From Desulfobacterales bacterium (GTDB lineage Bacteria; Desulfobacterota; Desulfobacteria; Desulfobacterales; C00003060), in assembly GCA_023129535.1 (NCBI GenBank), contig JAGMBW010000071.1, positions 1 to 54,977 of the forward strand: a stretch of 54,977 nt of DNA. Direction: 5' to 3'. Under the pieces are notes generated by a model. It saw only the letters and a list, made by a program, of their open reading frames with translations, was not told the origin of the DNA and made no database searches. Position numbers and translations under genes: made by a program. Position 1 is the stretch's first letter. The number at the start of each line of letters is the position of its first letter. Shown here piece by piece: positions 34,804-54,977 of the stretch.

Positions 34804-35049
34804 CTAATCTAACGTAACCTCCAGGATTCCGGTGTTATACATTTTCCCGATTATATTCCCACAAACGCGAGGCAATCTAACGTTTTTGTAATAGCTTCGC
34901 TTTCCCCGACTTGCAGATATGGTCAAAGTGTCTTCGTTTAGATCAAGCCTTATATCTTTTTCATTAAGACCGGGTAACTCAGCAATCACACGCATTTTCT
35001 TCTCTGCCTTAAATATATCCACGGCAATATCTCTTTCTTCTTTATCCAT
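34804..35049 (-). CDS. Short Hsp20/alpha-crystallin-domain protein
   Basis: VDIFKAEKKMRVIAELPGLNEKDIRLDLNEDTLTISA...GILEVTL. Confidence 0.65.
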   Translation of the reverse strand: MDKEERDIAVDIFKAEKKMRVIAELPGLNEKDIRLDLNEDTLTISASRGKRSYYKNVRLPRVCGNIIGKMYNTGILEVTLD

Positions 35050-35055
35050 TAGTCC

Positions 35056-35373
35056 TCAACCCAACCTACTCCTACTGGCTTTTGCCAGGGCCTTTTCCAA
35101 CTCATCCTCAATATCTCTGTCTATCTCCTCTGCAATCAGTGACAGCATAAAGGAGAGGTTCACCACAATCTTTATCCAATCATCGCCAATTTCGATGACA
35201 CCATTAAAGCCCCTTCCTTCAAAAGACATTTCACCGTGGTCATCACTCCACTCATAGGAAATCTCCTGACCGCTAAACCGCCTGGTCTCGATTTCAGAGA
35301 GCATGCCCTCAACGCTACCCCGCAGTTCCTCGAAATCCAGACGCGTCTCCTTTTCAATAACGATTTTAGCCAC
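35056..35373 (-). CDS. Small protein resembling the putative polyhydroxyalkanoate-system (PHA_gran_rgn) family
   Basis: The pattern W..D...F.G.GF.G.I.I....I.V...L....L resembles TIGR02610-type proteins. Assigned by eye only. Confidence 0.4.
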   Translation of the reverse strand: MAKIVIEKETRLDFEELRGSVEGMLSEIETRRFSGQEISYEWSDDHGEMSFEGRGFNGVIEIGDDWIKIVVNLSFMLSLIAEEIDRDIEDELEKALAKASRSRLG

Positions 35374-35386
35374 TGCAACTTTTTTA

Positions 35387-36073
35387 TTAATTAACCGGGG
35401 AGACCAGATATTTGGCTAATTCTTCAAATTCTTCCTTATTCTTTCTATAATGAAGCAGTAACCTTTGATAATCCCTTACTTTCTTCGTCTCTCTTACCTC
35501 AGTTACTTGAATATTCTTAGAAAGTTTTGGGATAATATTGTGATATGCTCCGATGAAGAGAATACCTGTTTCCCCATCATTTAGGGTTTCATCTATTTTT
35601 TTAGCTATATAAGTATCCCTTTTATTTAGTAACCTGTTCTTAGTAAATTTATACCATAAGTGCCCTATTAACTTCTTTGTGGTTGTCCTGGCCGTGGTAA
35701 TTTTAACGATGCGGTCTCTCTCCTCTTTAACCAGAGCAAAATCCTCTGTCTGAACTAAAATTGCGCCTTTCCTTAGTAAATCATCAATAATTTCATAGTT
35801 TTTACTCCCAGCCTTAACGGCTTCTTCAACTATCTTTTGGCCAACTTCTCCGCCAACTACCAGGCCATCCTGATATATCTTAACATTTTTAACCTCCAAA
35901 TCAGCAAAATATTTGACAATCGATTCCCAAAACCCGGAGATAGTTTCTCTGTGTCTCTTCCAGAACTCCTCTCCCAAACCTGCAATACCTCTTTTATCTA
36001 CCTGCTTGGCAATAGTACCTAAATCAGCGCTCATATGTATAATCGGCAGATAAATAAGTTTTTTCATACCCAT
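35387..36073 (-). CDS. Hypothetical protein (228 aa)
   Basis: Long ORF with coherent composition, co-oriented with its neighbours. No motif recognised. Confidence 0.55.
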   Translation of the reverse strand: MGMKKLIYLPIIHMSADLGTIAKQVDKRGIAGLGEEFWKRHRETISGFWESIVKYFADLEVKNVKIYQDGLVVGGEVGQKIVEEAVKAGSKNYEIIDDLLRKGAILVQTEDFALVKEERDRIVKITTARTTTKKLIGHLWYKFTKNRLLNKRDTYIAKKIDETLNDGETGILFIGAYHNIIPKLSKNIQVTEVRETKKVRDYQRLLLHYRKNKEEFEELAKYLVSPVN

Positions 36074-36402
36074 TTCCTTTTATCCTATCCAGCGAGGCTC
36101 AATCCATTTGGGTGGAGTTACTCTCATCTCCCGAGAAATGATAAATATTTCAGACAGGATTACTGGATTCACTTGATTTTATAAAAAAGAGTTAATGCAG
36201 ATCCTGTATATCATAAATTCGTAGGTACCGAACTATTATTCAAATCCAAAAAATAATTTTGATGAAGTGCTTTTCTAAAGTCTGATCGAATCGGCATGTA
36301 ATTATATATTTTTACAGGATTTGCGCTGTGTTGATTAACAGGAAATAAAAAATCTTGTTTATCCTGTTATCCTGTCTAAAAATATGATCCGTTTTACCTT
36401 CC

Positions 36403-37029
36403 TCACCTTTTTGTCATATTAGCCGTAATAATCTGGACTAATTCCATCAGTTTAAGTTTTTCTTGGTTTGGAATTTCCTGATCCTCCATCCAATCAATGG
36501 ATATCTTATCTTGCCCCAGAACAAATGCTTTAACTGCTACCTCCCAAAGGCAGGCCTTTTCCCCCTTACAATGACCAATTTTCACTAATTTTTTCTTCAA
36601 AACCGAAGCCTCTTTCAGCACCTCCTTATCTCCTCTTGCCTTTTGAAGGAGATTAGCGGAGGCGGGCGAGAGGACATCCTCTATAAGGGCCGTAATGTAA
36701 TTATTATCGAACGGCTTGGTGACATAATCATAAGCCCCCAATCTCATTGCCGCCCTGGCGGTTTTCATTGTCCCGTATCCCGTAATTATGATTACTTCTA
36801 TATTTTCATTTATTCTTTTAATCCGGCGCAAAACGTCGATTCCGCTCATATCGGGCAGCTTCAAGTCTAACATTACCAAATCCGGGCTTTTTTCAGCTAC
36901 AACCTCTAACGCCTTTTTGCCATTACTTGCTGTAAGGACCGTATATTGTTCCTTGCTTAATAACCTTTGAAAAACTGCAAGTATCATTTCCTCATCGTCT
37001 ACCACTAAAATAGTCTGTTTTCTTTTCAC
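36403..37029 (-). CDS. Response regulator (CheY-like receiver) with an unassigned ~85-aa C-terminal domain
   Basis: ILVVDDEE...DLVMLDLKLPDMSG...ITGYG...DYVTKPFD. Confidence 0.85.
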   Translation of the reverse strand: MKRKQTILVVDDEEMILAVFQRLLSKEQYTVLTASNGKKALEVVAEKSPDLVMLDLKLPDMSGIDVLRRIKRINENIEVIIITGYGTMKTARAAMRLGAYDYVTKPFDNNYITALIEDVLSPASANLLQKARGDKEVLKEASVLKKKLVKIGHCKGEKACLWEVAVKAFVLGQDKISIDWMEDQEIPNQEKLKLMELVQIITANMTKR

Positions 37030-37475
37030 TTTAAGTCTTCCTTTGCGTCCTTTGCGCCTTTGCGGTGAGGTGAAGGGTTACTCTTTTTCTTAGGAAGCGT
37101 TATTTCCAAAATGCCGTTTTTAAAATATTCCACTGTATTTGCAATATCCACATCTGCCGGCAGCTCAATCTCTTCTTTGAATTCCTGTTCCTCGTGTTTG
37201 GCAAAAATGATATACCTGTCAGGTTTTATATCGATGCTTACCTCGCCCCTTGAAAAACTACCCATGTCTATTATAATCTTCACCTCTTTCGCTTCTCTGA
37301 ACACGTCCACAAGAGGTTCTCTTATTTTCTTAAAAATAGGCTTGGTTTCATATATCCACTGTCGAGGTCTCCTGTAGACCTTTGGCTCAAACCGCCTCTC
37401 TTCCCGTCCCTTTCTAAGACTGCTAATTTTTCTATGCGCGCCTATACTTGTTATGGGTGGTATGCTCCTAATCAT
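37026..37475 (-). CDS. Hsp20/alpha-crystallin family protein
   Basis: VDVFREAKEVKIIIDMGSFSRGEVSIDIKPD...IELPADVD...FKNGILEITLPKK. The start and stop overlap both neighbours. Confidence 0.8.
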   Translation of the reverse strand: MIRSIPPITSIGAHRKISSLRKGREERRFEPKVYRRPRQWIYETKPIFKKIREPLVDVFREAKEVKIIIDMGSFSRGEVSIDIKPDRYIIFAKHEEQEFKEEIELPADVDIANTVEYFKNGILEITLPKKKSNPSPHRKGAKDAKEDLK

Positions 37476-39793
37476 GATCGTTTATCCTTATCGCCAAATA
37501 CAATTTCACCCATCTTGTTCAAATCAGCTACCCCCCGGACCTCATGGGGAAACAAGGGAACTTTTGTTACAATACGGGCGGGAAACCTTGAATGAATCTT
37601 TTTCATATATCCCTGCTGCTCCATCCTTTTGCAGGAGCAAAAATCACAATCCGTTTGGGGAATGACCATGTTGATTGCGATGTGATTACAGGGGACCCTG
37701 GCGCTCTCCAAGGCGTCTACAAGTCGTTCCAGCTCAAGAAAGCCCATGGCCTCAGGGATAGTCACCGCGACAAAAGCCGTTCTTTTGACGTCCACGAATG
37801 CCTCCTGAATCCTCCTCACATTCCTGGACATGGCCAGTGCCTTTTCAGCGGCCTTGGCCAACCTGACCACTCCCCTGTATTTCAACAACAACCTGAAAAA
37901 TGCCTTCAACCATTCCCTGACCATATCAGGAAGCTCCAAAAAGCGAAGAAGGTGGCCGGTGGGAGAGGTATCCAGGATAAAGATATCAAATTTTCCTTCC
38001 TTCTTCAGATCCATGATCATATCCAGGGCCATGATCTCGTCGAGACCCGGCGGCGCAAGGGTAAACAGTTCCGTCATGACCTCACGGTCGAATTTTATAT
38101 CAACGCCGCTGGTCAAAAATCTGTCGAAGAGTGCTTCTATGTCTTTCTTGTACCCCTCCTTGAAATCCTCAAACAACTTATCCGCATCTATCTCCAAAGC
38201 GAAAAGATTGGTATTGACAGGTCCAAGGTCCGAGGTCCAATGTCCAAGGTCCGAGGAGTTGTCCAAAGTCCGAGGTCCAATGTCCAATGTCTTTCCATGG
38301 TTACCTGCTGACTTTGGACTTTGGACTTTGGACTTTGGACCCATCACTTCCGACTTTGGACTTTGGACAGTTCTTGGACTTTGGACTTTGGACGTTGGAC
38401 TATAATCTATTGGCGTCACCTTATCCCCAATCGTCAACTTAAACGAATCGGACAGGGAATGGGCTGGGTCCGTGGAGAAAACAAGGACCTTTTTTCCTGG
38501 ATTACATCGCGCCAAATGAAGTGAGGCGGCTGAAGCAAGGGAGGTCTTGCCCACTCCGCCCTTGCCGCCAAAGAGGACAAATTCGAGATCGGGATCGAGG
38601 GTCAGATACGCCTGGGGCTCTTCATCAGTCTGAGCTACCTTCGGCAGTCTGTAAGGCTTGCCCTTTCCTAAGAGATAGTCCGCCAGGCCTTTCAGTTCTT
38701 CGACCCCTCGGATCTCCCTGGGAAACAACGGGACTTTTATCAAATTATATAGTGAAAAAACATCTTCGATTTCGGACAAAGGCTCCCTTTGATCCTCTTT
38801 TTTTGCTGTGCAAAACGCACAGCCTTCGCTATCCCCGACCCTGTTGACGACAATCTCCTTCACCGGGATGTGGTTCTTGTCCAGACTGCTCAGGAGTCTC
38901 CTGGTCTCATATATACTCATTGGCTCCGGAATAGTCACCGGAACGAACCGGGTTATCTTCTCGTTCGAGAGGAGCTTTTTAACCCTATCAATATCCGAGG
39001 AGAGGTTGTCGAGGAAAATATCACACTCATCTTTGACATACCTTTTTCCGGTAAAATGGGCAGCCATGTAACGGTGCTTGTGCTGCATCAGATCCATAAC
39101 CTCAACCCATTTCAGCATCTGTTCGGGAAGGGCAAGCATCCGCATGGTGTGCCCGGCCGGGGCAGTATCCACTATCAGGATATCATAACTTCCCTCCTTC
39201 AAAATATTGGCTATCTCGATGATGGCCATGACCTCATCCATGCCCGGAAGCGAAAGGTCGAAAAATTCGGCAATGTCCTGCTGGTCAAAATAGGTTCCCC
39301 TCTTCGCAAGTTTCTTCATTACGGGATCATTCTTCTCTCTGAACTCCTCTAACAACCTGTTTGCATCTAACTCACGCGCAAACAAGTTTGCGCGGTCCGA
39401 TGTCCGTTGTCCAATGTCCAATGTCTGATGTTGTCCGATGTCAGACGTCCCGCCATGATCCCTGCCCGAGCTTGGACTTTGGACCTTGGACCTTGGACTT
39501 TGGACTTTGGACCTTGGACGCATCACTTCTGACTTTGGACTTTGGACTTTGGACTTTGGACTATAATCTATTGGTGTGACTTTATCCCCTATCTCTATCC
39601 CAAAGCTATCGCCCAGGGAATGGGCCGGATCGGTCGATATGACCAACACCTTCTTGTCGCTGGGATAAGACCGGGCCAACTGCACAGCCGCAGCCGCAGC
39701 CATGGTAGTCTTGCCCACGCCGCCCTTTCCACCGAACAGGATCAAGCGCAGGTCTCTGTTCTGAAAATATTCAGGTACCCTGCGGGAAATCAT
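37472..39793 (-). CDS. Tandem (two-domain) ArsA/Get3-family ATPase with repeat-encoded insertions in both halves
   Basis: Two GGKGGVGKT(T/S) P-loops, two STDPAHSL motifs and two DT(A/S)P(A/T)GHT(M/L)R switch motifs. Insertions are at 39389-39568 and about 38215-38400. Confidence 0.9.
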   Translation of the reverse strand: MISRRVPEYFQNRDLRLILFGGKGGVGKTTMAAAAAVQLARSYPSDKKVLVISTDPAHSLGDSFGIEIGDKVTPIDYSPKSKVQSPKSEVMRPRSKVQSPRSKVQSPSSGRDHGGTSDIGQHQTLDIGQRTSDRANLFARELDANRLLEEFREKNDPVMKKLAKRGTYFDQQDIAEFFDLSLPGMDEVMAIIEIANILKEGSYDILIVDTAPAGHTMRMLALPEQMLKWVEVMDLMQHKHRYMAAHFTGKRYVKDECDIFLDNLSSDIDRVKKLLSNEKITRFVPVTIPEPMSIYETRRLLSSLDKNHIPVKEIVVNRVGDSEGCAFCTAKKEDQREPLSEIEDVFSLYNLIKVPLFPREIRGVEELKGLADYLLGKGKPYRLPKVAQTDEEPQAYLTLDPDLEFVLFGGKGGVGKTSLASAASLHLARCNPGKKVLVFSTDPAHSLSDSFKLTIGDKVTPIDYSPTSKVQSPRTVQSPKSEVMGPKSKVQSPKSAGNHGKTLDIGPRTLDNSSDLGHWTSDLGPVNTNLFALEIDADKLFEDFKEGYKKDIEALFDRFLTSGVDIKFDREVMTELFTLAPPGLDEIMALDMIMDLKKEGKFDIFILDTSPTGHLLRFLELPDMVREWLKAFFRLLLKYRGVVRLAKAAEKALAMSRNVRRIQEAFVDVKRTAFVAVTIPEAMGFLELERLVDALESARVPCNHIAINMVIPQTDCDFCSCKRMEQQGYMKKIHSRFPARIVTKVPLFPHEVRGVADLNKMGEIVFGDKDKRS
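38215..38400. repeat. Palindromic heptamer array (GTCCAAN)n...(TTGGACN)n translated in frame within ArsA half 2
   Basis: Read directly from the sequence. It encodes ...SKVQSPRTVQSPKSEVMGPKSKVQSPKS...TLDIGPRTLD...HWTSDLGP. Confidence 0.85.
39389..39568. repeat. Palindromic heptamer array translated in frame within ArsA half 1
   Basis: Encodes DYSPKSKVQSPKSEVMRPRSKVQSPRSKVQSPSS...TSDIGQHQTLDIGQRTSD, at the same structural position (after GDKVTPID) as in half 2. Confidence 0.85.
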
Positions 39794-39807
39794 TATTGAA
39801 AATTCCT

Positions 39808-40716: not shown

Positions 40717-40718
40717 TT

Positions 40719-41261
40719 TTACTTCCTTTTAGTTTTCTTGAAAGCTTTAAGTCTTTCTACCGCCTTATCTACTTTCTGCTCTGTCTTTTTAACCTCACCC
40801 AGTCGGTCGAAGTTATAATTCATTTGAGTCTCTTCTATCGGATCTATGAAGGTTTGTGGTAACTCCATCCCCCCTTTTTCTCTTACCCGTATCCCAATTC
40901 CTCCTGGAATATTCTTAGCTATCTCCTGGGCAATTTCCTTAACCATATTCTTATTCAAGCTCCTATCTTCTTTAGCTATCGATCTGGCATACGAAAACTC
41001 CTCAATTTCACCATCCTTTCCACGACGGCCCACACGCCGATAACCTTCTATGTTAAGCTGTTTATCTATATCTACCTCGTAGATATTTCGTTCGTGAATG
41101 ATACGGTAGTCTTTGGTGCTGTCCCACATGGTATCAGTGGCCTCCACCAGAACTTTCCACTCTCCAGGATGAGGTGTCACCTGAATAATGGTTCCTTTTT
41201 TCCCCAAATCAAAGCGGAAGAAAAGCTTTATTTCTTTAATTGCATCCTTAACTGTAGCCAT
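40719..41261 (-). CDS. GvpO-like protein with a C-terminal extension
   Basis: GEWKVLVEATD...YEVDIDKQLNIEGYRRVGRRGKDG parallels the GvpO core (GWxVxVEVVE...YEvtlD...GYerv.RY.RG). Confidence 0.5.
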   Translation of the reverse strand: MATVKDAIKEIKLFFRFDLGKKGTIIQVTPHPGEWKVLVEATDTMWDSTKDYRIIHERNIYEVDIDKQLNIEGYRRVGRRGKDGEIEEFSYARSIAKEDRSLNKNMVKEIAQEIAKNIPGGIGIRVREKGGMELPQTFIDPIEETQMNYNFDRLGEVKKTEQKVDKAVERLKAFKKTKRK

Positions 41262-41272: not shown

Positions 41273-42355
41273 CTAAACCGAGGGGTGAGGTCCGCCCTCG
41301 AGCCTCTCCTGATCCGTAATGGCAGCAATGAGGGTTCCCCTGGCTACCGCATGTAGAGGAGAAGAGGCCATTTTTACCTTGCCGATTTCCATAGGGAATT
41401 TAACCTGTGATAGTGCTTTATTAAATTTAACTAAAAATCCCTTCGGCATAGTTGTCCCACCTGAAATTACCAGAGTCACCGGTTTGGTGAAACGAGGTAG
41501 CTTAGGGTTGTTATCAAATTCTTGCTTGATACTTTTCAGAACATAATTTATGAGATTATCGTAGTAAATGGCCAGGGCGGTTTCTATGTGGGATTGGGTC
41601 TTCACATTGGTGAGGTCAAGAGATTTCTCTTTTACTTCACACACCCGGCTGGCGGTTTCCCCTAAGGCAATCCCCACTTGTTCATCAATCCAGTCACCTG
41701 ATTTGCTCAGACTGAAGCTTACCACTGGAACCGACATATAACTGAGACACATATTCACCATACCTGCCCCGAAAGAGATGCCAATGCCGGTGAACTCCTC
41801 GTCGGCTAATTCTGAAAAGATTATACCCATACCTTCGTTAATCGGCTTTGGCGTATATCCGGCTTTTTCCAGGAATCTTTTGACAATATTTTCATGGTAA
41901 ATGATATCAAAATCGGCATCAAGTGGAGCAGCCGGGACTGAATAGTAAACTATCTCCCCCTTGCATTTAGGCCGGCCAATCACGCTTTGTATGATGAGTT
42001 CAATCATTGGTAAGCTCTCTTTTTCTGAAGGACTGATTACCCCCTTTCTCAAAGGTCGGCGTAATTCCCGGTGGAAAATATTTGCCATCTCCATAGCCTC
42101 ATCGCCTATCACATAAAGACTTCCATCTTTTTCAATATACTTTACGTTAATCTTGTTAAGCATCTTTTTGGTGAAATCGCCAGGCTCAATGTTAAAAAAG
42201 GCATCCCTCTGTCTTCGGAAAACAATATTTCCTTTTTCCCTTTCGGCGCAGTAAATAAAGGCAGTGCCAACATCCAGACCTTTACCTAAGTCTTTTTCCA
42301 CAGTAGCTTCCGCCCTCTTCGCCCTACGGTTTTTCGCACCTGTTTTTGTCACCAC
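41273..42355 (-). CDS. Actin-like ATPase (ParM/MreB/MamK superfamily)
   Basis: GLDVGTAFIY (phosphate 1), GIGISFGAGMVN (phosphate 2) and LVISGGTTMPKGF (adenosine motif). Confidence 0.75.
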   Translation of the reverse strand: MVTKTGAKNRRAKRAEATVEKDLGKGLDVGTAFIYCAEREKGNIVFRRQRDAFFNIEPGDFTKKMLNKINVKYIEKDGSLYVIGDEAMEMANIFHRELRRPLRKGVISPSEKESLPMIELIIQSVIGRPKCKGEIVYYSVPAAPLDADFDIIYHENIVKRFLEKAGYTPKPINEGMGIIFSELADEEFTGIGISFGAGMVNMCLSYMSVPVVSFSLSKSGDWIDEQVGIALGETASRVCEVKEKSLDLTNVKTQSHIETALAIYYDNLINYVLKSIKQEFDNNPKLPRFTKPVTLVISGGTTMPKGFLVKFNKALSQVKFPMEIGKVKMASSPLHAVARGTLIAAITDQERLEGGPHPSV

Positions 42356-42371: not shown

Positions 42372-43751
42372 TTATGCGAATTGGCGTAGTTTCTCCCTGA
42401 ATTGAAATTCGTCAATGGCTCTTTCATATAGATTATTGAGCTCTTCATTGGTGATATTTCTTAGTTTGATAACACCTTTTTCAAGTTGATATGAATATTG
42501 ACTCCAATCAGAAGTTGCTAACATATCATTCATCTTACAGTATTCGTATAATGGGGTTCCAGGGAAGGGAGTCACTATTGAAAATCCTGCGCTATCCAAA
42601 CCGTGATTCAATGCCAGATCCTTGGCGAGGTTTATTGTATCCTCAATTGTTTCAACAGTCTCCGTAGGGTAGCCCATCATGAAATATCCATAAGAAGATA
42701 TCCCCGTCCTTGAGGTTATGTCTATCGTTTCCCGGACTTGCTTGATGGTAAATCCTTTCTTGCACAGGTCAAGTATCCTCTGGTTCCCGAATTCAATTCC
42801 ATAGAAAATAACAAGACAGTTGGCTTTTTCCATTACCTTAAGTAGTTTCTCTGACACCAAACCTACCCTGCCGTCGCAAGCCCACGTAAGACCGTCAAGG
42901 CCTCTCTCGGCCATACCCCTGCACAAATCAACGGTCCACTCTTTGTTCACAATAAGAAGGTCGTCAAGGAACCTGATGTATCTTACGCCAAACTCTTTAT
43001 AGATTTGCTCCAGTTCATCCAGGACATTCTCCACGGATCGCCTTCTGTGTTTTCTTCCCCATATACGTGGAGCAGCGCAGAATGCACACTGATAGGGGCA
43101 TCCTCTCGTTGATAAAACAGGACTGAATGTCTGGCCTTCAGTCCATAATCCACGGTAGGCGGGATTATGGAGTAAATTACGGGCAGGAAAAGCAAATGTG
43201 TCAAGATTCTTAACAAAGGGTCGGTCCGGATTAACAATTATATCATTGCCCCGTTTGAAAGTTATACCTCTTATTGCGGTAAGATCGCCGCCTTTCAATA
43301 GACAGTCTATCAAATCCAGGCACGTTATCTCACCTTCACCCCTAACGCAAAAATCCACGGAGTCATTATCAATAATACTTTTATGCTCAAAATGTATATG
43401 AGGCCCTCCTAAAATCACCTTTATACCCGGGTTGATTTCCTTTACTTTTTGTGCGAGATAAAGAGCGCTGTTTACACGCGCAGTAATAGCTGTTATGCCA
43501 ACGAATTGAGGGGCCTCTTTTTCAATTTTTTTTATGACTTCATCATGGGAAAGGCCTCTTGTGCGAGCTTCGATCAAGCTGACATCTATCCCATTATCCA
43601 TCAACGTTCCTGCAATATATGCAAGACCAAGAGGCGGATAGACCTCATGCATTTCAGTAGCCTTCGGCGCTTGTTGGCTTTTGCCCATCTCCGAAATCTG
43701 ATCAGGTGGGTCAATTAAAATACATTTAACCTCTTGATCTTTTTTGATCAT
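42372..43751 (-). CDS. B12-binding domain radical SAM protein
   Basis: N-terminal cobalamin-binding-like YPPLGLAYIAGTL and the radical SAM cluster motif RGCPYQCAFC. Confidence 0.85.
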   Translation of the reverse strand: MIKKDQEVKCILIDPPDQISEMGKSQQAPKATEMHEVYPPLGLAYIAGTLMDNGIDVSLIEARTRGLSHDEVIKKIEKEAPQFVGITAITARVNSALYLAQKVKEINPGIKVILGGPHIHFEHKSIIDNDSVDFCVRGEGEITCLDLIDCLLKGGDLTAIRGITFKRGNDIIVNPDRPFVKNLDTFAFPARNLLHNPAYRGLWTEGQTFSPVLSTRGCPYQCAFCAAPRIWGRKHRRRSVENVLDELEQIYKEFGVRYIRFLDDLLIVNKEWTVDLCRGMAERGLDGLTWACDGRVGLVSEKLLKVMEKANCLVIFYGIEFGNQRILDLCKKGFTIKQVRETIDITSRTGISSYGYFMMGYPTETVETIEDTINLAKDLALNHGLDSAGFSIVTPFPGTPLYEYCKMNDMLATSDWSQYSYQLEKGVIKLRNITNEELNNLYERAIDEFQFREKLRQFA

Positions 43752-48020: not shown

Positions 48021-48386
48021 CTACTTCCATTCTTTTGCGACATACTCGATGAATTTGTTAATCTTCTTGCCCAGTTTGTAATACTCATTCAGGAGAAACG
48101 ATAGTTCTGTTTCATCAACTTCATGGGTATCTTTGATGAAATTCAGATGCAGAGTTGTTTCATCGCACGATGCGTGAGCATAGATCAGGAACTTAATAAA
48201 GTCGGCTTTATATCTTCTCCGCCCATAGCCTTCTACAATTGAGGACGTAATTCCTTTCGAGGAGCGTCTTATTTGGCTTCCCTCTTCATAAAGTTCATAT
48301 TTTGGCAAGGTTAATGACATCCTATGTATTCTGACTGCCAGATCATAAGAGAGAGTGTAGATTTCCAAATCCCTGTAGCTCTTCAC
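48021..48386 (-). CDS. Four-helix-bundle protein (23S IVS protein / Avd-like), copy B
   Basis: A GTG start at 48386 follows AAGGAG. KSYRDLEIYTLSYDLAVRIHRMSLTLPKYELYEEGSQIRRSSKG closely matches copy A. Confidence 0.8.
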   Translation of the reverse strand: MKSYRDLEIYTLSYDLAVRIHRMSLTLPKYELYEEGSQIRRSSKGITSSIVEGYGRRRYKADFIKFLIYAHASCDETTLHLNFIKDTHEVDETELSFLLNEYYKLGKKINKFIEYVAKEWK

Positions 48387-48402
48387 TATATCAACTCCTT
48401 GA

Positions 48403-48502
48403 CCTGCAACTCGCAACTCGCAACCCGCAACCTGCAACCTGCAACTTGCAACTTGCAACTTACCCACTACCCACTGACCACTGACAACGGACCACTGATC
48501 AC
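48403..48502. repeat. (CTGCAAC/TCGCAAC/TTGCAAC)n then (CCACTGA)-type arrays, right flank of gene B
   Basis: The reverse complement of the units equals the GTTGCAG units on the left flank. Confidence 0.85.
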
Positions 48503-49579
48503 TTTCTTCCTCGCACTCACCCACCCACATCCGGAGCATCCTTGCTCTAACAATTCCTTTATGGAAGCCGTTCTTCCGCACTGGGGGCAGGTCTCAGTTT
48601 CTTGCTCTGTCTGGGATTCTACCCGCCCGCTTATGATTCTCTTGAGTATTTTGTTCCATTCCTCCAGGGCATCACCCGAAAAGGTGGCCACTCTTCTTGT
48701 GCCGTTAGCGGCATAGAGGAGATCCAGGACCTTCTCTTTCTTCAGAATATTAGTGAGGTCTCTTGTTTCCATCATCGAACCTATTATTCCACTTACAGGA
48801 ATCTCTATGACTATCCTTCGTTCAAAGTTATACCACCAACACACTCTTTTATCAGTAAGATACAAGTAACCGGGCCTCCAGGTGTCCTCTATAATGCCCT
48901 CTGCATCCATCAGATACCACATCTTCCCACTGCAAATAAGCTGCTCTCCCTGGGCTAAGAACTCTGCCGCCCTTTCTTCAAGAACTGGAATCTCTGGATC
49001 TTTTTTCAGGACAAGCCCCAGCTCTTTCATCCTTTTCTCTATGGTCTCTTTCAGTTGATCTATATCTAGACCACTCAGTCTTGCTATCTTGCTCCCTTCC
49101 AGAAGCAGATATAACTCTTCCCTCTCTTTTTTTTCGGTGAAATGCTCCCCTTTCCTGATCAGCAGACTCTGTATCTTCATCAGGGGAGTCTCGAATAAGA
49201 CTTCCCCAAAATCTTCATGATAGAGGAGCAACCTCTCGCTGGTCAGGTAAAGGTAGCCATATCTCCAGGCTGTATATATCCCTTCACTTGAGTAGTATGC
49301 CCCTAACATCTTGAGGATGACCTCTTCTCCCTGCACCATGCAGCTTTTTTTCTTGCTTCTGTGCTCCTGCTCCCAGTCCCGGATACGTTCATCCCACGCC
49401 TGCATCATCCCGTATTTCAGCATGGTATCCATACCGGCCAGGGCTGCCCTCAGATTAACCCCGATTAAAGGAATGCCCGCAACCGATACGATCAGGTCGG
49501 CATGGATCACCAGGCCCTTGTCCAGCACCCGATCAAGAAGATCGACTAGAGTTGCGTTGGTGTTACGTTGAGGATCCAT
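48467..49579 (-). CDS. GvpA/GvpJ-domain protein fused to two PH/GRAM-like domains and a C-terminal zinc ribbon
   Basis: LVDLLDRVLDKGLVIHADLIVSVAGIPLIGVNLRAALAGMDTMLKYG is a GvpA core. There are two GYLYLT(S/D)(E/K)R modules, and CPQCGR...GCSGCGW. The ATG at 49579 begins MDPQRN. Confidence 0.85.
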   Translation of the reverse strand: MDPQRNTNATLVDLLDRVLDKGLVIHADLIVSVAGIPLIGVNLRAALAGMDTMLKYGMMQAWDERIRDWEQEHRSKKKSCMVQGEEVILKMLGAYYSSEGIYTAWRYGYLYLTSERLLLYHEDFGEVLFETPLMKIQSLLIRKGEHFTEKKEREELYLLLEGSKIARLSGLDIDQLKETIEKRMKELGLVLKKDPEIPVLEERAAEFLAQGEQLICSGKMWYLMDAEGIIEDTWRPGYLYLTDKRVCWWYNFERRIVIEIPVSGIIGSMMETRDLTNILKKEKVLDLLYAANGTRRVATFSGDALEEWNKILKRIISGRVESQTEQETETCPQCGRTASIKELLEQGCSGCGWVSARKKVISGPLSVVSG

Positions 49580-49721: not shown

Positions 49722-50087
49722 TCACTTATCACCCTTCAAATAACGGATAAATCCACTAATTAGCTTCTTGACTACTACGGCCTTTTCATAAACTTCATTA
49801 AATTGTTCCTTTGAAATGTACTCTTGATCAAGAGCAACATAAGAGTGAGATTGAACTTCGGATGCAGACCGGCGGGAATAGATTAGGAACCGGATGAACT
49901 CTGCATCGGACTGAGAATCAAATCCTTCTGCTATGTTTGACATTACCGAAATTGAGGCACCTTCCATCTGATCTCTTAACCTATAGCTTTTGATAAGATT
50001 GCCAACTGAAGTGATTCCAAAAACCATTTTTGTTAGGATTCTACCTTCTTGCCAAGCCTTAATATCTTCAAAGCGCTCGATCTTCAT
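49722..50087 (-). CDS. Four-helix-bundle protein (23S IVS protein / Avd-like), copy C (divergent)
   Basis: FEDIKAWQEGRILTKMVF...SNIAEGFDSQSDAEFIRFLIYSRRSASEVQSH. Confidence 0.8.
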   Translation of the reverse strand: MKIERFEDIKAWQEGRILTKMVFGITSVGNLIKSYRLRDQMEGASISVMSNIAEGFDSQSDAEFIRFLIYSRRSASEVQSHSYVALDQEYISKEQFNEVYEKAVVVKKLISGFIRYLKGDK

Positions 50088-50151: not shown

Positions 50152-51252
50152 TCAAACAAATGAGTATGGTGCCCAAGGCCCGGTATATCGAACGGAAAAA
50201 CCCTCCAGGGCATCGATCTTTTCCACCTCATCTCCCAGCCCTTTACTCCCGTCCCCAGGAAGCAAACAGGATAGATTCATGAGCATCTGTTTGTTTTCGT
50301 CCTCTGTTTTTTTTGTCTTTTCTACACGGAGGTCATTCACGTGGGGTTTGATTCTCTCATAGAATTCCTTAAAGTATCGGTCTGCCTGCTTTTCCATCTC
50401 CTTTTTCAAAAGGTCTTCCAGTTTCTGCCTGTACATGTAGGCCAGGCCTCTCGGTTTGGACTTTATTTCTTCGTCCAACTTCTTTATTTCAACACTTTCT
50501 TCGGTAATCTTTTGAGCCATAACTTTAGAATCCCAAAATACCTGCACCCCGTATTCTGCCCTGCCTCTGACCTTTTCCATCTTCGCTTTCAGGTTTTCGT
50601 AATCCTCCTTTAACCAATTCCTCATATTCTCTTCCGGGTCAGAAGCCTCATTCCCTCGAATGATGGTGTCAAACCCCATAGGAAGCACGGTACCATATCT
50701 TTCCCAGGCCGCATCGACCACTTTTTGATGGGCCACTATCCAGCCTTTCACAACCTCTTGATCTTCTGATTGGTATGGCTCAGCAGGACAATTATGGACT
50801 ACGGCACAGAGATCTTTGTAAGGAATGCTATAGACCTCGTTGCCTTCTATGCCGATCCTGCCAAGATTTACGCTCTCGCTGCCTTCGACAATGCAGTAAA
50901 GGTATCTTCCGCTCATTAGTCCAATGTCCAATGTCAGAGGTCCAATGTCAGAAGACTGAGGTCCAGGGTCTGAGCTATGAGGTCCGACGTCCGATGTTCG
51001 GTGTCCGATGTCCGGTTTCCTACGACTTTGGACTTTGGACTTTGGACATTGGACGTTTTGAAATGCAACATCCATAGACAACGCCCCTTCCTCTTCCACC
51101 ATTTCTTCCAGAACCCCGGTAATGGAGTCCCGAATGGCCGTCCTGAGTTCTGGCAGAAGAGAAGTGCTTACTATTTCTCTTATCGTATCTTCATTCTCGG
51201 CAAGAATATCCCTTATCTCTTGCTTCACCATCTTTTTAATTGTCTCTTTCAT
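50152..51252 (-). CDS. gvpF: GvpL/GvpF family protein, core from the ATG at 50916; possibly carrying a repeat-linked N-terminal helical extension from 51252
   Basis: The core MSGRYLYCIVEG...YKDLCAVVH...WIVAHQKVV...VLPMGFDTI...RYTGPWAPYSF is a typical GvpF/L. There is no stop between 51252 and 50916, a segment encoded by the heptamer array, and no Shine-Dalgarno site before 50916. Confidence 0.8.
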   Translation of the reverse strand: MKETIKKMVKQEIRDILAENEDTIREIVSTSLLPELRTAIRDSITGVLEEMVEEEGALSMDVAFQNVQCPKSKVQSRRKPDIGHRTSDVGPHSSDPGPQSSDIGPLTLDIGLMSGRYLYCIVEGSESVNLGRIGIEGNEVYSIPYKDLCAVVHNCPAEPYQSEDQEVVKGWIVAHQKVVDAAWERYGTVLPMGFDTIIRGNEASDPEENMRNWLKEDYENLKAKMEKVRGRAEYGVQVFWDSKVMAQKITEESVEIKKLDEEIKSKPRGLAYMYRQKLEDLLKKEMEKQADRYFKEFYERIKPHVNDLRVEKTKKTEDENKQMLMNLSCLLPGDGSKGLGDEVEKIDALEGFSVRYTGPWAPYSFV

Positions 51253-51337
51253 GCTCTGCGCCTGAAGTCCAATGTCCGACGTCCAATGTCCGAAGTCCAA
51301 TGTCCAAGGTCGAAGGTCCGAGATCAAGGGCGATGAC

Positions 51338-51679
51338 TTACGACATTGGACCTTGGACATTGGACCTTGAACTGTTAGTTCCTTCCCACCTCTCCGGATT
51401 GATCATCTTATCTAATAGTTCATCCACAATATTATCCAGGCCGTCTCTTACCGATTTGACCGACTCGCTGATTCCCTGCTCCTTTTTCATCTCGTCGATT
51501 GCTGTGTCGAGATCCATCAATGCCTGTCCTAACCTCTCGGTCTCTTCTTCGGTGAGGCTTCCCCCTTCCATCCTTTTCAATGCCTGAAGTCTGAGGGCAT
51601 CCTTGATGATCTCGACCAGGGCGACGACTAACCCCATGACTCCGTGTTTGAGATTTTTCTCGTCAATGTCTATGGGCAT
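51338..51679 (-). CDS. gvpK: Gas vesicle protein GvpK
   Basis: GLVVALVEIIKDALRLQALKRMEGGSLTEEETERLGQALMDLD matches the GvpK signature. Confidence 0.8.
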   Translation of the reverse strand: MPIDIDEKNLKHGVMGLVVALVEIIKDALRLQALKRMEGGSLTEEETERLGQALMDLDTAIDEMKKEQGISESVKSVRDGLDNIVDELLDKMINPERWEGTNSSRSNVQGPMS

Positions 51680-51860: not shown

Positions 51861-51911
51861 ATCGATTTCTTGAAATGCTATTATGAACATAAATTAGAGG
51901 AGGCCGGGAAA

Positions 51912-52142: not shown

Positions 52143-52365
52143 GCATCTCCCCTTCTTTTTTTTTGTCCAAAGTCCGAGGTCCAAAGTCCAAAGTCGTATA
52201 TTGCTCTGACAAACGACAAATGACATTGGACATTGGACAGTAAGCTGTATCGTGCGTGTATCGTGTATCCAGCATCCTATATCGTGCAATGAGCAACAAG
52301 CAACGAGCAACCTGTAACGAGCAACGTGCAACGTGCAACCAGGAACGAGCAACCAGCAACTCCCT
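52143..52365. repeat. Mixed heptamer arrays (GTCCAAA, TTGGACA, GTATCGT, AACGAGC families)
   Basis: Read directly from the sequence. Confidence 0.8.
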
Positions 52366-52725
52366 CTACGGACTGATCTTTTGGGCCAGTGCCTTCGCCT
52401 TGGCACTGATCCAGCCGCACCAGGGGCAGCCGGTCGTTATAAGTTCCTCAATAGGAACCCTCTTTTCGCATTGAGGGCAATTTTCCCTGGCTATGAGTGC
52501 CTCTGTCCAGGCGGGGGTCTCCAAATTGGTTCCTGAAGGAAATTCCAAACCATACTTGGCTGCCGTCTCAAAGGATGCCAGGGCGGCCCTAATCTTGATC
52601 CCAAGCAGTTCAACGCCTGCCACAGATACGGTAATGTCTGCGTTAATGACCAATCCCTTATCCAGGATTTTGTCTATTACGTCAGCTAAACCGCCGCCAC
52701 CATTTCGAGATGGTTCTATAGCCAT
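52366..52725 (-). CDS. GvpA/GvpJ-family gas vesicle structural protein with a C-terminal zinc ribbon
   Basis: LADVIDKILDKGLVINADITVSVAGVELLGIKIRAALASFETAAKYGL is very close to the canonical GvpA core. The C-terminus has CPQCEK...GCPWCGW. Confidence 0.88.
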   Translation of the reverse strand: MAIEPSRNGGGGLADVIDKILDKGLVINADITVSVAGVELLGIKIRAALASFETAAKYGLEFPSGTNLETPAWTEALIARENCPQCEKRVPIEELITTGCPWCGWISAKAKALAQKISP

Positions 52726-52927: not shown

Positions 52928-53368
52928 TTACTTCCGAGCGACTCTGGTAACCCCTTTTCCTCCGCAGGTAACGCAAGGCAGGGTAGAGTTGATTCGAGCT
53001 TTTCCAGTACCACCACAATCCTTGCAAATCTCTCTGGATTCCGATACCGTAACCCTGCCTTTTCCTCCACATACGCTGCACGGGAGCCAATCCTGACCGT
53101 AATGCTGGCCTGTTCCCTCACAATAGGCGCATTCTATGGAAGGCTCTTTGACGGTGACGAAACCCTTTCCACCACATGTAGTACATGTAATCCTCTGGCC
53201 AGGATATTTACCGGTTCCTTCACAGAAGGCACACTCGAATACGGGCTCAAAAACCTTTATTTTCCCCCTGCCACTACACACCTGGCATTTAGACAATGTA
53301 GACAGAATCCCGAAAGGATCCAATCCCTCGCCATCACAGTACGCACACTTGTTTTCGATAAGCATCAC
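52928..53368 (-). CDS. DnaJ-type zinc-finger repeat protein (8 x CxxCxGxG) without a J domain
   Basis: The eight motifs are CAYCDGEG, CQVCSGRG, CAFCEGTG, CTTCGGKG, CAYCEGTG, CSVCGGKG, CKDCGGTG and CVTCGGKG. No HPD motif. Confidence 0.8.
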   Translation of the reverse strand: MMLIENKCAYCDGEGLDPFGILSTLSKCQVCSGRGKIKVFEPVFECAFCEGTGKYPGQRITCTTCGGKGFVTVKEPSIECAYCEGTGQHYGQDWLPCSVCGGKGRVTVSESREICKDCGGTGKARINSTLPCVTCGGKGVTRVARK

Positions 53369-54120
53369 TATCTCCTTTCTGTTGAGTCCCTCGCCACCTG
53401 GATATTGTAGAAATCTCCCTTTCTTTCATAGGTTATTAACGAATTGTTTTTCAATTCATCAAGACTCTGTGCCAATTTGTCTCTGGCATCGATAATTCTT
53501 GTCTCAGAAATTTGAGAAAACTTTAGAAGATCGCTTTCCCTGACTCGAAACGGCTTCTGTTTCCCTCGATCCACAACAGAAGAATAAATCTGAAATGCAG
53601 AAGGGGAAAGGTTATCCCGGGTCCGGAAAAACAATTTGTCCATCTTTTCTTGCAGGCCCAGATTGGAGTTGATATATTTTATAATGGCAAGGTACTTCGG
53701 GATTTTTTCTTCGACTTCAATTTCGTTAGCAATCTCGTCGTATTTGAGCTTAAAGGTCTTTTGTAATTTTACCCTATCTCCATCATGTAGAAGAGTAGTC
53801 TCAATATCTTTCATTTTTCCTTTAAGACTCTCTATCGTCATAAAAATGCTATTAAGATCCTGCATCTTTGGTTTCAGTTTCTCAACAAACTGATTTATTC
53901 CTCGACTAAATTCGTTCTCCTTTTCCTTTACTTCTCTGAAAAGAGGAGCAATTTCAGTGTCGATGATGTCCAGTTTTGCCTGCCATTCTGCTTGTTTGAG
54001 GGCCTCAGTCAGATCTTCCAACTCCTGTTTGCTTGCTTCTTTTGTCGTTTCAAGTTTGGAAATTTCCTCTCTTTTTGCCTCGACCTGGTCTTTCAATTGT
54101 TCTATCTTTTTGTTCTCCAT
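53368..54120 (-). CDS. Coiled-coil protein with a possible C-terminal winged-helix
   Basis: 250-aa K/E-rich heptad-like sequence. The stop and start are coupled to the downstream zinc-finger gene. Confidence 0.6.
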   Translation of the reverse strand: MENKKIEQLKDQVEAKREEISKLETTKEASKQELEDLTEALKQAEWQAKLDIIDTEIAPLFREVKEKENEFSRGINQFVEKLKPKMQDLNSIFMTIESLKGKMKDIETTLLHDGDRVKLQKTFKLKYDEIANEIEVEEKIPKYLAIIKYINSNLGLQEKMDKLFFRTRDNLSPSAFQIYSSVVDRGKQKPFRVRESDLLKFSQISETRIIDARDKLAQSLDELKNNSLITYERKGDFYNIQVARDSTERR

Positions 54121-54141
54121 TTCCTTCCTCCTTCTCCAATA

Positions 54142-54447
54142 CTAACCTCCTATTTCCTTCCCTTCATCGGCCCCTTCCTCGGGTCTCACATGGACCACCC
54201 CTTTGCCATGGCAGTTCCAGCAGAAGAGCTTGCTCCTGTAATAGACGCCGGTGCCCTCACAGGCGGGGCAGGTCTCATAAGGCTTTATGACATAAACGGT
54301 CTTATGGCCATTGCAGACCGGGCAGTATGAAAGAGGAGATAAGAGTTTGAATGGATCTTTGCCCTTACCCTTGCAAAATGCACAGGTGATCTTTTCCATC
54401 TCAGGAAGGATCGTTTCTGCGGACTTTCTTCTTCGTCTCTTAACCAT
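54142..54447 (-). CDS. Small DnaJ-type zinc-finger protein (4 Cys pairs) without a J domain
   Basis: CAFCKGKG, CPVCNGHK, CPACEGTG and CWNCHGKG. The ATG at 54447 is chosen over 54456 and 54540 on Shine-Dalgarno spacing. Confidence 0.7.
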   Translation of the reverse strand: MVKRRRRKSAETILPEMEKITCAFCKGKGKDPFKLLSPLSYCPVCNGHKTVYVIKPYETCPACEGTGVYYRSKLFCWNCHGKGVVHVRPEEGADEGKEIGG

Positions 54448-54895
54448 CTTTTCCATCCCCCTTTTTAGAAAGCTCAATAGTTTTTTTCCATTCCTTAAGG
54501 TTCCTGGCAAAAAGAAAAAATACTTTTTTAAGGCTATCACTCTGTTGCATGAGCTGAAGTTGCTCCACCTTCTTTTTGGGAACCCAATCCCTTTGTATAA
54601 TTGATATATCTTTCAGAGAATTCAATGATATCTCAAAGAGCTTGTTTGCCCCTTGCAGGAATATAAGGCGCTCTTTGGTCAGGTATAGATAACCTGGCTT
54701 CCAGTTGGCCCTGGTTCGCATGCCATCTTGATAGCTTGCCTGCCCGGCCTTGATCACTTCTTCTCCTTCGATATCAGAAGGCATCTCCATCTCCCGCTGC
54801 ATCTCCAGACCACTTCTTAACCTCAACTGTGCCGCCTGGTTAAAACGCCCGTATGCAGTCCTCTTCATCGCGCCTGTATCCCTCTCAATTCCCAT
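54440..54895 (-). CDS. PH/GRAM-like domain protein
   Basis: WKPGYLYLTKERLIFLQGANKLFEISLNSLKDISI, the same module as in 48467-49579. Confidence 0.65.
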   Translation of the reverse strand: MGIERDTGAMKRTAYGRFNQAAQLRLRSGLEMQREMEMPSDIEGEEVIKAGQASYQDGMRTRANWKPGYLYLTKERLIFLQGANKLFEISLNSLKDISIIQRDWVPKKKVEQLQLMQQSDSLKKVFFLFARNLKEWKKTIELSKKGDGKDG

Positions 54896-54977
54896 AGATA
54901 ATCTCAGACAACCTTGTCAGTTCCTCCACTCCCCTGATCTGATTTGAAAAAAGGGGAACCTGCACAATGTTATGCTC

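Follow-up and report, generated by a model that had tools for sequence, protein, structure and literature searches.

A stretch of 54,977 nucleotides of contig JAGMBW010000071.1 from a Desulfobacterales bacterium (GenBank assembly GCA_023129535.1), hereafter the window, was found to end in a chaperone-rich gas vesicle (gvp) gene island. To our knowledge, gas vesicles are the only gas-enclosing protein organelles. The list of open reading frames (ORFs) and their translations revealed that the gene-sized ORFs at positions 34804-54977 are all on the minus strand, tightly packed and separated by short spacers, with gaps of 2-16 bp between the genes around 39793-42372 and 4-bp overlaps of start and stop codons at 37026/37029 and 37472/37475. 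This arrangement, overlapping codons included, had been described in a previous reading made from the letters alone (the sequence-only reading). From the right-hand edge of the window leftward, the genes of the island, with the database matches on which their assignments rest, are:

54888..54977 (-), 3' end of ArsA-1, a tandem ArsA/Get3-type ATPase; Pfam ArsA_ATPase on a 30-aa fragment
54440..54895 (-), 151-aa PH-like module protein with the motif WKxGxLYLTxxRLxF; weak Pfam matches to Vps36-GLUE, PH and CheF-arch
54142..54447 (-), within the ORF 54142-54540, J-domain-less DnaJ-type zinc finger with 4 CxxCxGxG motifs; DnaJ_CXXCXGXG, E 2.6e-9
53368..54120 (-), 250-aa coiled-coil protein; weak SMC-like coiled-coil matches only, homologues in relatives
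52928..53368 (-), J-domain-less DnaJ-type zinc finger with 8 CxxCxGxG motifs, equal to two cysteine-rich domains; E 2.5e-16 over 4 stretches
52366..52725 (-), minor protein of the GvpA family, GvpJ-like, ending in a CPxC...CxxCGW zinc ribbon; Pfam Gas_vesicle, E 1.9e-16
51338..51679 (-), GvpK; Pfam GvpK, E 4.2e-19
50152..51360 (-), GvpF/L, domain at aa 151-402; Pfam GvpL_GvpF, E 2.6e-70
49722..50087 (-), 23S_rRNA_IVP (four-helix-bundle) gene; Pfam, E 3.4e-28
48467..49579 (-), 370-aa protein with a GvpA domain, two PH-like modules and a C-terminal zinc ribbon (GvpA-PH); Gas_vesicle, E 1.4e-16, weak GRAM and Vps36 matches
48021..48581 (-), 23S_rRNA_IVP gene; Pfam, E 4.5e-24
46124..47872 (-), Hsp70 (DnaK paralogue), 582 aa; Pfam HSP70, E 7e-196
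45668..46039 (-), 23S_rRNA_IVP gene; Pfam, E 4e-29
44663..45622 (-), PH-like module fused to an Hsp20 (alpha-crystallin) domain (PH-Hsp20); Pfam HSP20, 19 bits, below cut-off
43814..44584 (-), proline-rich octapeptide-repeat protein with about 22 x KPYTPVPL and a C-terminal zinc ribbon; 24-nt period array
42372..43751 (-), class B (B12-binding) radical SAM enzyme; Pfam B12-binding and Radical_SAM, above cut-off
41273..42355 (-), Volactin-family actin; PF25216, E 2.6e-95, 320 bits versus a cut-off of 35, full length
40719..41261 (-), actin-adjacent partner, 180 aa; weak GvpO-like N-terminal domain and a conserved C-terminal tail of about 60 aa
39808..40716 (-), 302-aa TPR protein (TPR-302); Pfam TPR
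37472..39793 (-), tandem (pseudo-dimeric) ArsA/Get3-type ATPase (ArsA-2); ArsA_ATPase, E 2e-140 over 4 stretches
37026..37475 (-), Hsp20 small heat-shock protein; HSP20, E 1.4e-7, 32 bits; its start overlaps the ArsA-2 stop
36403..37029 (-), response regulator with a receiver domain and a C-terminal region of about 90 aa; Response_reg, E 3.8e-33
35387..36073 (-), 228-aa conserved gvp-cluster protein; no Pfam or NCBIfam match, 1267 homologues
35056..35373 (-), PHA_gran_rgn-family small protein; PF09650, E 3.2e-12
34804..35049 (-), short Hsp20/ArsA_HSP20-like protein, last gene of the island; HSP20, 21.5 bits (cut-off 20.8), and ArsA_HSP20, 22 bits (cut-off 22.5)

Most of these families had been named in the sequence-only reading, and the Pfam matches above confirm its two GvpA-domain proteins, GvpF/L, GvpK, Hsp70 paralogue, tandem ArsA/Get3 ATPase, B12-radical SAM enzyme, TPR protein, response regulator, actin-like ATPase and two J-domain-less zinc-finger proteins, as the 24-nt period does its octapeptide-repeat protein. 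The PHA_gran_rgn protein, the three 23S_rRNA_IVP genes and the recurrent PH-like module were not on its list. Of the three or four Hsp20-domain proteins that it counted, the one at 37026-37475 is clear, that at 34804-35049 is borderline and that at 44663-45622 is sub-threshold, although each of them is conserved in relatives.

The window is part of a 63,877-bp contig of a Desulfobacterales metagenome-assembled genome (MAG), found as a metagenome scaffold in ENA (locus L001), on which the 8.9 kb upstream of 54977 hold further cluster genes on the same strand as the island:

beyond 54977 (L001), same strand as the island, 112-aa protein
L001 818-1747, about 7 kb past the window edge, GvpN; TIGR02640 equivalog, 348.5 bits versus a cut-off of 266.8
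beyond 54977 (L001), same strand as the island, 130-aa winged-helix-like protein
beyond 54977 (L001), same strand as the island, second GvpF
beyond 54977 (L001), same strand as the island, double zinc ribbon protein
beyond 54977 (L001), same strand as the island, third CxxCxGxG zinc-finger protein, with six motifs
beyond 54977 (L001), same strand as the island, histidine kinase, response regulator and short TPR protein
L001 6803-8965, second tandem ArsA (ArsA-1), 720 aa, whose last 30 codons form the right edge of the window

The region is the distal 20 kb of a single-strand gvp cluster, of which the contig shows at least 29 kb; to judge from relatives, the full cluster probably measures 40-50 kb. 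The suspicion that upstream genes had been cut off by the window edge proved right, as gvpN, a gvpF, the second tandem ArsA gene and the third zinc-finger gene all lie there, and the earlier statement that the window itself contains no GvpN, GvpC or GvpG was also correct.

Over aa 1-59, the 119-aa GvpJ-like protein aligned to the solved GvpA proteins of Anabaena and B. megaterium (E 4.5e-12), with 53% identity to that of Anabaena. Its best NCBIfam model was GvpJ (101.6 bits, below the cut-off of 125), and the 370-aa GvpA-PH protein, orthologues of which are found directly upstream of Hsp70 in at least 10 loci, was more divergent from GvpA than the 119-aa protein. Given the best model and the zinc ribbon of the former and the greater divergence of the latter, both GvpA-family proteins of the window look like minor shell proteins of the GvpJ/M type. 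In the contig of a second sample that carries the same cluster (L002), the GvpJ-like ORF was read as 207 aa (L002 2222-2845) and no Gas_vesicle gene was called at the counterpart of 52366-52725, which points to strain-level variation or to a repeat-driven length change at the repeat-rich spacer 51680-52365. Repeats also account for much of the N-terminal extension of GvpF/L, which consists largely of translated heptanucleotide repeats (50919-51054 and 51264-51321).

In related clusters that share this architecture, GvpA proteins of 67-74 aa with 81-88% identity to the Anabaena protein are encoded, typically at the 5' end, and the clusters with a canonical GvpA also carry GvpN, GvpG, GvpO, GvpF and GvpK. 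In locus L174, for example, the gene order is histidine kinase, sigma-54 activator, GvpA (68 aa), GvpN, Cdc48-like AAA+, GvpF-DnaJ, GvpF, GvpF, GvpG, GvpO and ArsA, and the GvpN of this locus (P0345) is shared with a 202-kb contig that holds the distal part with the radical SAM gene (L106). The nearest long relative (L172), the GvpN of which is 81% identical, is collinear with our contig in its downstream part; in the 8.6 kb upstream of its gvpN are genes for GvpF-DnaJ, GvpO, two GvpG proteins and zinc-finger proteins, with no canonical gvpA within that distance. Because the relatives carry canonical GvpA, we read clusters of this type as elaborated gas vesicle clusters rather than as gene sets for a different compartment.

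A metagenome scan with the radical SAM gene returned 80 loci. Linkage was analyzed from the radical SAM and actin genes to gvp genes, not from all gvp clusters to actin or radical SAM genes. All 24 orthologues (63-86% identity) were in gvp clusters of this type and were collinear wherever flanking DNA exists, whereas the 56 loci with distant homologues (32-38% identity) had none of the island neighbours. The collinear set consists of [zinc finger]-GvpJ-like-Hsp20-GvpK-GvpF-GvpA-PH-Hsp70, followed by [zinc finger, winged helix, coiled coil, PH151]-tandem ArsA-radical SAM-TPR-302-PH-Hsp20-228-aa protein and, after the 228-aa protein, by (Hsp20, response regulator, J-protein). TPR-302 directly followed the radical SAM gene in 20 of the 24 orthologous loci. 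Given the collinearity of the orthologues and the lack of such neighbours beside the distant homologues, the radical SAM, TPR, Hsp70, ArsA, zinc-finger and PH-module genes belong stably to clusters of this type. The translated radical SAM protein contains the CxxxCxxC cluster motif CPYQCAFC; compared with the NCBIfam subfamilies (BchE, HpnJ, PhpK, etc.), it fell far below every cut-off, the best score being that for BchE (211.8 versus 481).

Among the chaperone and targeting genes, ArsA-2 has as its best match in the PDB the 687-aa "ATPase ARSA1" (5ZME, E 1e-67), and it matches archaeal and fungal Get3 proteins at E 1e-38 to 1e-47 compared with only E 4e-25 for E. coli ArsA (1F48). Its translation contains a GGKGGVGKT P-loop and a CxxC pair (CAFC, CDFC) in each half, and both halves carry in-frame inserts of heptamer repeats (38219-38401 and 39395-39562). 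No arsB, acr3, arsD or arsR gene was found in the cluster by Pfam or among the gene calls, including those of the contig extension, and a role of the ATPase in an arsenic pump was ruled out on the grounds that ars genes are lacking and the protein is Get3/ARSA1-like.

The Hsp70 scored 749 bits against NF001413 (cut-off 648) and 735.8 bits against TIGR02350, below its cut-off of 822.55, which indicates a divergent DnaK paralogue. DnaK matches in the PDB span aa 1-580, covering the nucleotide-binding and substrate-binding domains, and orthologues with 48-80% identity occupy the same position after GvpA-PH in relatives. In 38 related loci a J-domain was found either as a C-terminal fusion to GvpF, with the HPD motif, or as a small J-protein encoded after the 228-aa gene, and L006, L007, L089, L172 and L174 have GvpF-J fusions and a Cdc48-like double-AAA+ ATPase as regular members. 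Together with the stand-alone zinc-finger proteins, the J-domains of the related loci would amount to an Hsp70 system dispersed over cluster-specific proteins. A division into exclusive Hsp70-type and Cdc48-type cluster classes was ruled out, as L017, L089 and L174/L106 carry both.

The PH-like module recurs within the island: it stands alone in 54440-54895, is fused to Hsp20 in 44663-45622, where it matches the 151-aa protein, and occurs twice in 48467-49579. In relatives the 151-aa protein is conserved beside ArsA and PH-Hsp20 is conserved downstream of the radical SAM-TPR pair. A profile of the module recovered only a designed repeat protein among PDB sequences, and the Pfam PH, GLUE and CheF-arch matches were sub-threshold, so that the label "PH-like" is tentative. 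From the roles of these families elsewhere, the chaperone and targeting set likely serves to handle the very hydrophobic GvpA-family proteins.

The actin gene had 1992 homologues, the 120 best of which were listed at 54-92% identity from sources that span many phyla. A scan with one genome per species returned 80 loci, which were searched within 10 kb by tblastn with the window proteins and the reference proteins of relatives, a procedure that undercounts neighbours on short contigs. Genes for gas vesicle proteins were present in 39 of the 47 loci with an actin at least 49% identical, and in 28 of 32 when such loci were at least 8 kb long, in contrast to 1 of 33 loci with an actin below 49% (Planctomycetota, Thermoplasmatota, Binatia and Terriglobia). 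The neighbours in the 32 longer loci included GvpF (27/32), GvpA-family proteins (25/32), Hsp20 (23/32), GvpG (21/32), Cdc48-like AAA+ (20/32), GvpN and zinc fingers (19/32 each), ArsA (18/32) and Hsp70 (6/32). A crude neighbour-joining tree placed the gvp-linked actins in one clade, with the unlinked actins as outgroups.

The linked loci came from at least 14 phyla and a DPANN archaeon; by record names they belong to Acidobacteria, Patescibacteria/Parcubacteria/Saccharibacteria/Falkowbacteria, Chloroflexi, Aerophobetes, Planctomycetes (Scalindua), Omnitrophota, Lentisphaerae, Saganbacteria, Bacteroidetes, Elusimicrobia, Nitrospirae, Nitrospinae and Gammaproteobacteria. Independent look-ups with precomputed Pfam annotation also placed the actin within gvp clusters in Acidobacteria, Scalindua rubra and Nitrospirae (a population on 86 contigs), and in a Nanoarchaeota MAG the actin directly precedes gvpA-gvpN-gvpO. 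The sequence-only reading had taken the genes as one linked island and had named, as a ground for refutation, the separation of the gvp genes from those for the chaperones, ArsA and actin in related genomes. This was not borne out, as the linkage held across many phyla.

An AlphaFold (AF2) model of the actin, built from a 15-sequence alignment (predicted local distance difference test score, pLDDT, 77; predicted template modelling score, pTM, 0.75), matched MreB, BeeR and MamK with template modelling (TM) scores of about 0.6-0.67. The residues D28/G30/T31, G196/G198 and G299/G300, which lie in the phosphate- and adenosine-binding motifs, are invariant in the alignment. The only sequence relatives in the PDB were MamK filaments (E 1.3e-4 over about 150 residues), and membership of the MamK family was not found by sequence, Pfam assigning the protein to Volactin.

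In most clusters a protein of about 170 aa, composed of a winged-helix-like head and a conserved tail, is encoded immediately upstream of the actin, its gene often overlapping the actin start codon. The position of the actin varies among clusters, and in the window the actin and its 180-aa partner, which lies 11 bp downstream of the actin, sit between the radical SAM and TPR genes that are adjacent elsewhere. The last approximately 60 residues of the partner are homologous to the tail of the 170-aa protein (hhalign probability 98.1%, E 7.9e-14). A weak alignment to GvpO (hhalign probability 72%) spans the first 80 residues of the partner from end to end; the 180-aa protein had no match in Pfam or NCBIfam, and a homologue (P0278) matched PF05800 at E 5e-4, below the cut-off. 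The GvpO-like protein of the sequence-only reading thus receives weak support. An exhaustive search for homologues of the partner yielded 9 representative clusters only. We read the pair as an actin with a partner protein, in which the tail, being constant, is probably what touches the actin, whereas the head, which is exchanged between clusters, may touch the vesicle.

Taken together, the locus probably represents an elaborated, chaperone-rich gas vesicle cluster with dedicated proteostasis, actin and radical SAM modules; the class to which it belongs comprises, as far as can be judged from gene sequences, conserved and horizontally spread gvp clusters rich in chaperones. In the pathway that we propose, a canonical GvpA, probably encoded just beyond the contig end, would form the shell, the formation of which would be assisted by GvpF/L, GvpK and the AAA+ protein GvpN, while the GvpJ-like zinc-ribbon protein and the GvpA-PH-PH-zinc-ribbon protein would be minor shell subunits that display docking modules to the cytoplasm. 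Because GvpA-family proteins are extremely hydrophobic, we propose that they are kept soluble and delivered by dedicated machinery. This machinery would consist of the two pseudo-dimeric ATPases of the Get3/ARSA1 type, both accompanied by a small PH-like or Hsp20 protein, several small heat-shock proteins, and the DnaK paralogue, which would work with stand-alone DnaJ-type zinc-finger holdases. In relatives, the further partners of the DnaK paralogue would be a Cdc48-like AAA+ unfoldase and a J-domain, the latter either part of a GvpF fusion or specified by a gene next to the cluster. The Volactin-clade actin and its partner would attach gas vesicles or vesicle nuclei to a filament that positions or aligns them, with the C-terminal tail of the partner binding the actin and its variable head (GvpO-like here, winged helix elsewhere) binding the vesicle, in analogy to MamK/MamJ of magnetosomes. 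The B12-radical SAM enzyme and its TPR partner would modify a cluster protein, and the histidine kinase and response regulators would control expression.

Several points weigh against this interpretation. No canonical major GvpA of about 70 aa is encoded on the 63.9-kb contig, tblastn searches of the window and L001 detected neither GvpG nor a canonical GvpO, and no J-domain was found in the window or L001 and no Cdc48-like gene on this contig. Because the contig stops 0.8 kb upstream of gvpN, the cluster is still truncated, and its complete form is inferred from relatives rather than seen. The actin was within 10 kb in only 1 of 8 long loci anchored on the radical SAM gene, which makes it an optional module. 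The roles proposed for the accessory modules derive from gene linkage and from the functions of their families elsewhere, the hosts of this cluster type are all uncultured and the cluster is known here from genes alone. A promoter and terminator scan of the island gave counts equal to the shuffled expectation and was uninformative on operon structure.

More tentatively, and with somewhat less than an even chance of being right, we suggest that gas vesicles would be the second prokaryotic organelle, after magnetosomes, to have a dedicated actin cytoskeleton. The actin, a monophyletic group of the Volactin clade that horizontal transfer would have carried into at least 14 bacterial phyla and into DPANN archaea, would polymerize on gas vesicles, to which it would be joined by the partner, with the conserved C-terminal tail on the filament and the GvpO-like or winged-helix head on the vesicle. 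In this lineage, assembly of the shell would in addition need Get3-like delivery, an Hsp70/zinc-finger/J-domain line and the modification of a shell-associated protein by the B12-radical SAM enzyme.

The main rival for the actin-partner module, which we consider unlikely, is that the two proteins form a ParM/ParR-like DNA-segregation or mobility module that hitch-hikes in transferred gvp islands and is unrelated to vesicles. The partner head is winged-helix-like in most clusters, as expected of a DNA-binding adaptor, the clusters are clearly spread horizontally (actin identities of 55-65% across phyla), the actin module changes position within them, and the region studied here lies downstream of a tRNA-adjacent integrase and mobile-element genes. 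Against such a role, the actin pair lies in the middle of same-strand gvp operons, often with overlapping codons between gvpF genes, and has no adjoining replication genes, and some linked actin loci are on contigs of 50-100 kb. The partner head is also GvpO-like rather than winged-helix-like here and in Acidobacteria, and the gvp-linked actins form one clade, while the unlinked clades (Planctomycetota and Thermoplasmatota) never adjoin gvp genes.

That the genes specify a different GvpA-shelled compartment, not buoyancy vesicles, with the fused GvpA paralogues as its shell and the chaperones specific to it, was left open beside an elaborated gas vesicle pathway in the sequence-only reading; it now appears very unlikely, and the gas vesicle pathway is favoured. 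Both visible GvpA-family proteins are indeed atypical fusions, even the better of them being best classified as GvpJ, canonical gvpA is absent from the contig, and many hosts are sediment, groundwater or ultra-small organisms of the candidate phyla radiation (CPR) and DPANN, for which flotation is not obviously useful. However, GvpJ-type minor paralogues are normal in ordinary gvp clusters, the clusters with the same accessory genes carry canonical GvpA with GvpN, GvpG, GvpO, GvpF and GvpK, and the GvpN on our contig scores above the equivalog cut-off. It is highly improbable that general stress or proteostasis genes (Hsp70, Hsp20, ArsA and zinc-finger) came to lie by chance beside a small gvp set, since, even though each of these families is common in stress regulons and the three unrelated 23S_rRNA_IVP genes and many repeat arrays mark a region that tolerates insertions, such juxtaposition is contradicted by synteny: the identical gene order recurs in dozens of independent contigs from many phyla, and distant homologues of the anchor genes lack all of these neighbours.

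An elaborated gas vesicle cluster of this kind is in part anticipated by earlier work. Two-domain ArsA homologues, away from any ars genes, and hsp20 genes were described within gvp clusters from several phyla, and ArsA was proposed to energize a biogenesis step (Castillo & Saier 2010; PMC2963123). Contrary to what the sequence-only reading implied, the linkage of ArsA and Hsp20 to gvp clusters is therefore not new. In the present cluster, the ATPase proved closer to ARSA1/Get3 than to E. coli ArsA and is present in two copies, and the Hsp70, J-domain, zinc-finger, Cdc48, actin and radical SAM genes were not reported there. No paper on actin, Hsp70/J-domain, zinc-finger or radical SAM modules in gvp clusters was found in a search that did not extend to subscription-only literature and that yielded, besides incidental matches in reference lists, the 2010 paper only. 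What is most novel here is the clade of gvp-linked actins together with the partner protein.

The island shares with the characterized gvp clusters (gvpACNO/gvpDEFGHIJKLM of Halobacterium and those of Anabaena, Bacillus megaterium and Serratia) the GvpA-family, GvpF/L, GvpK and GvpN genes and their same-strand arrangement. GvpH of the characterized clusters is Hsp20-like, and the small heat-shock protein of the relatives gave faint GvpH matches. In contrast to these clusters, the island is two to three times larger, no GvpC was recognized in the window, and the GvpA paralogues are fused to zinc ribbons and PH-like modules. It adds to them two tandem Get3-type ATPases, a DnaK paralogue, three J-less zinc-finger proteins, the B12-radical SAM enzyme and its TPR partner, the octapeptide-repeat protein, the actin and its partner, and the 228-aa protein.

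Similar comparisons can be made for the single modules. Like MamK/MamJ, an actin-fold ATPase is encoded in an organelle gene cluster beside a putatively dedicated partner, and MamK is a good structural match (TM 0.62-0.67). However, the actin is only marginally related to MamK in sequence, its partner shows no relationship to MamJ, and gas vesicles, unlike magnetosomes, are protein shells free of lipid. The actin is of the same Pfam family as the volactin of Haloferax volcanii, a cell-shape (rod-to-disk) factor in a report that does not mention gas vesicles (PMC10869688). The clade described here differs from it in being defined by gvp linkage, the distant archaeal and planctomycete clades being unlinked. 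ArsA-2 resembles Get3/ARSA1 in having two fused deviant-Walker-A NTPase halves with a CxxC pair in each, the element that underlies the zinc-mediated dimers of Get3. Unlike for Get3/ARSA1, there are no membrane receptor genes nearby, each half of ArsA-2 carries an in-frame repeat-derived insert, and the proposed client would be a hydrophobic shell protein of a lipid-free organelle. Plant BSD2 is a J-less DnaJ-type zinc-finger assembly chaperone for Rubisco. Like BSD2-type chaperones, the zinc-finger proteins are small, contain CxxCxGxG motifs only and are encoded with the complex that they would help to assemble; in contrast to them, they are three paralogues (4, 6 and 8 motifs) beside a dedicated Hsp70 and are known from genes alone.

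Of the other members of the island, the 228-aa protein is present in many gvp clusters, and the 120 best listed of its homologues are 61-100% identical. It is among the most conserved cluster genes, with invariant H13, S15, D17, H41, D69, E110 and H178. These His, Ser, Asp and Glu residues suggest that it is an enzyme; its AF2 model (pLDDT 85) had no fold match in the PDB (best E 0.45). The array of the octapeptide-repeat gene was detected as about 15 copies of the 24-nt period, and homologues 53-60% identical are encoded in L004/L011, L013 and L101. Homologues of the 250-aa coiled-coil protein were found in L013, L092, L096, L098, L099 and L101, while the PHA_gran_rgn protein had no homologue in any related locus examined and is unique to this contig. 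The three 23S_rRNA_IVP paralogues occupy spacers between gvpF, gvpA-PH, hsp70 and PH-hsp20 that are empty in the syntenic L089, which for instance lacks the gene at 49722-50087 between gvpF and gvpA-PH. Each is bracketed by heptamer arrays, such as those at 47929-48018 and 48405-48461 around 48021-48581, and the three have the appearance of small mobile cassettes that were inserted into the gaps of the operon.

Tandem arrays of heptanucleotides (units such as GTCCAAA, GGTTGCA and GACTTTG), dozens in number and often in forward/reverse-complement pairs, are distributed over the window, e.g., at 38219-38401, 39395-39562, 47929-48018, 48405-48461, 49586-49714, 50919-51054 and 52286-52360, and we take them to resemble the STRR repeats of cyanobacteria. 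Several arrays are in frame within genes: stretches of about 50-60 residues (SKVQSPKS..., TLDIGPRT...) are thereby added to the two halves of ArsA-2, where they occupy an identical loop position, and to the N-terminus of GvpF, and the ORFs remain unbroken. Farther to the left, a 251-nt unit occurs as 2.3 tandem copies at 11308-11885 and folds into two hairpins of 27-28 bp that are nearly perfect (minimum free energy -133 kcal/mol, z = -10.75), hairpins extending across 10748-12243. The array, which lies upstream of a DDE transposase gene (12588-14591), matched no Rfam family and gave spurious miRNA-precursor matches only; at the gathering threshold, the Rfam scan returned only three tRNAs.

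Two tRNA genes directly followed by a phage-type integrase gene are at 7463-8839, to the left of which is a housekeeping tig-clpP-clpX-lon block. The segment 12588-25548 encodes the DDE transposase, a PAPS-reductase-like protein, a PLD-family nuclease, NlpC/P60 and clostripain proteins and a Phage_rep_O/IstB-like/DUF5131 replication module. Given the integrase and mobile-element genes nearby, the gvp island may lie within or next to integrated mobile DNA. Two genes named by NCBI as sigma-54-dependent activators (26207-27586 and 28440-30845) are 4-8 kb from the 3' end of the island, and in L174 the canonical gvpA comes directly after genes for a histidine kinase and a sigma-54 response regulator, observations which together make sigma-54 control of such clusters plausible.

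Gas vesicles have been engineered as acoustic reporter genes, and their heterologous expression is limited by proteotoxic stress. The Get3-type ATPases, the split Hsp70 system, the small heat-shock proteins and, in relatives, the Cdc48-like unfoldase are concrete candidates for gas vesicle assembly factors. As this cluster occurs in organisms of sediment and groundwater and in ultra-small CPR/DPANN organisms, one may ask what purpose gas vesicles serve there. If the proposed role of the actin is true, magnetosomes would be joined by gas vesicles as organelles with a specific cytoskeleton, formed by the gvp-specific actin clade and its partner, and the Volactin family would gain a second, very different context.

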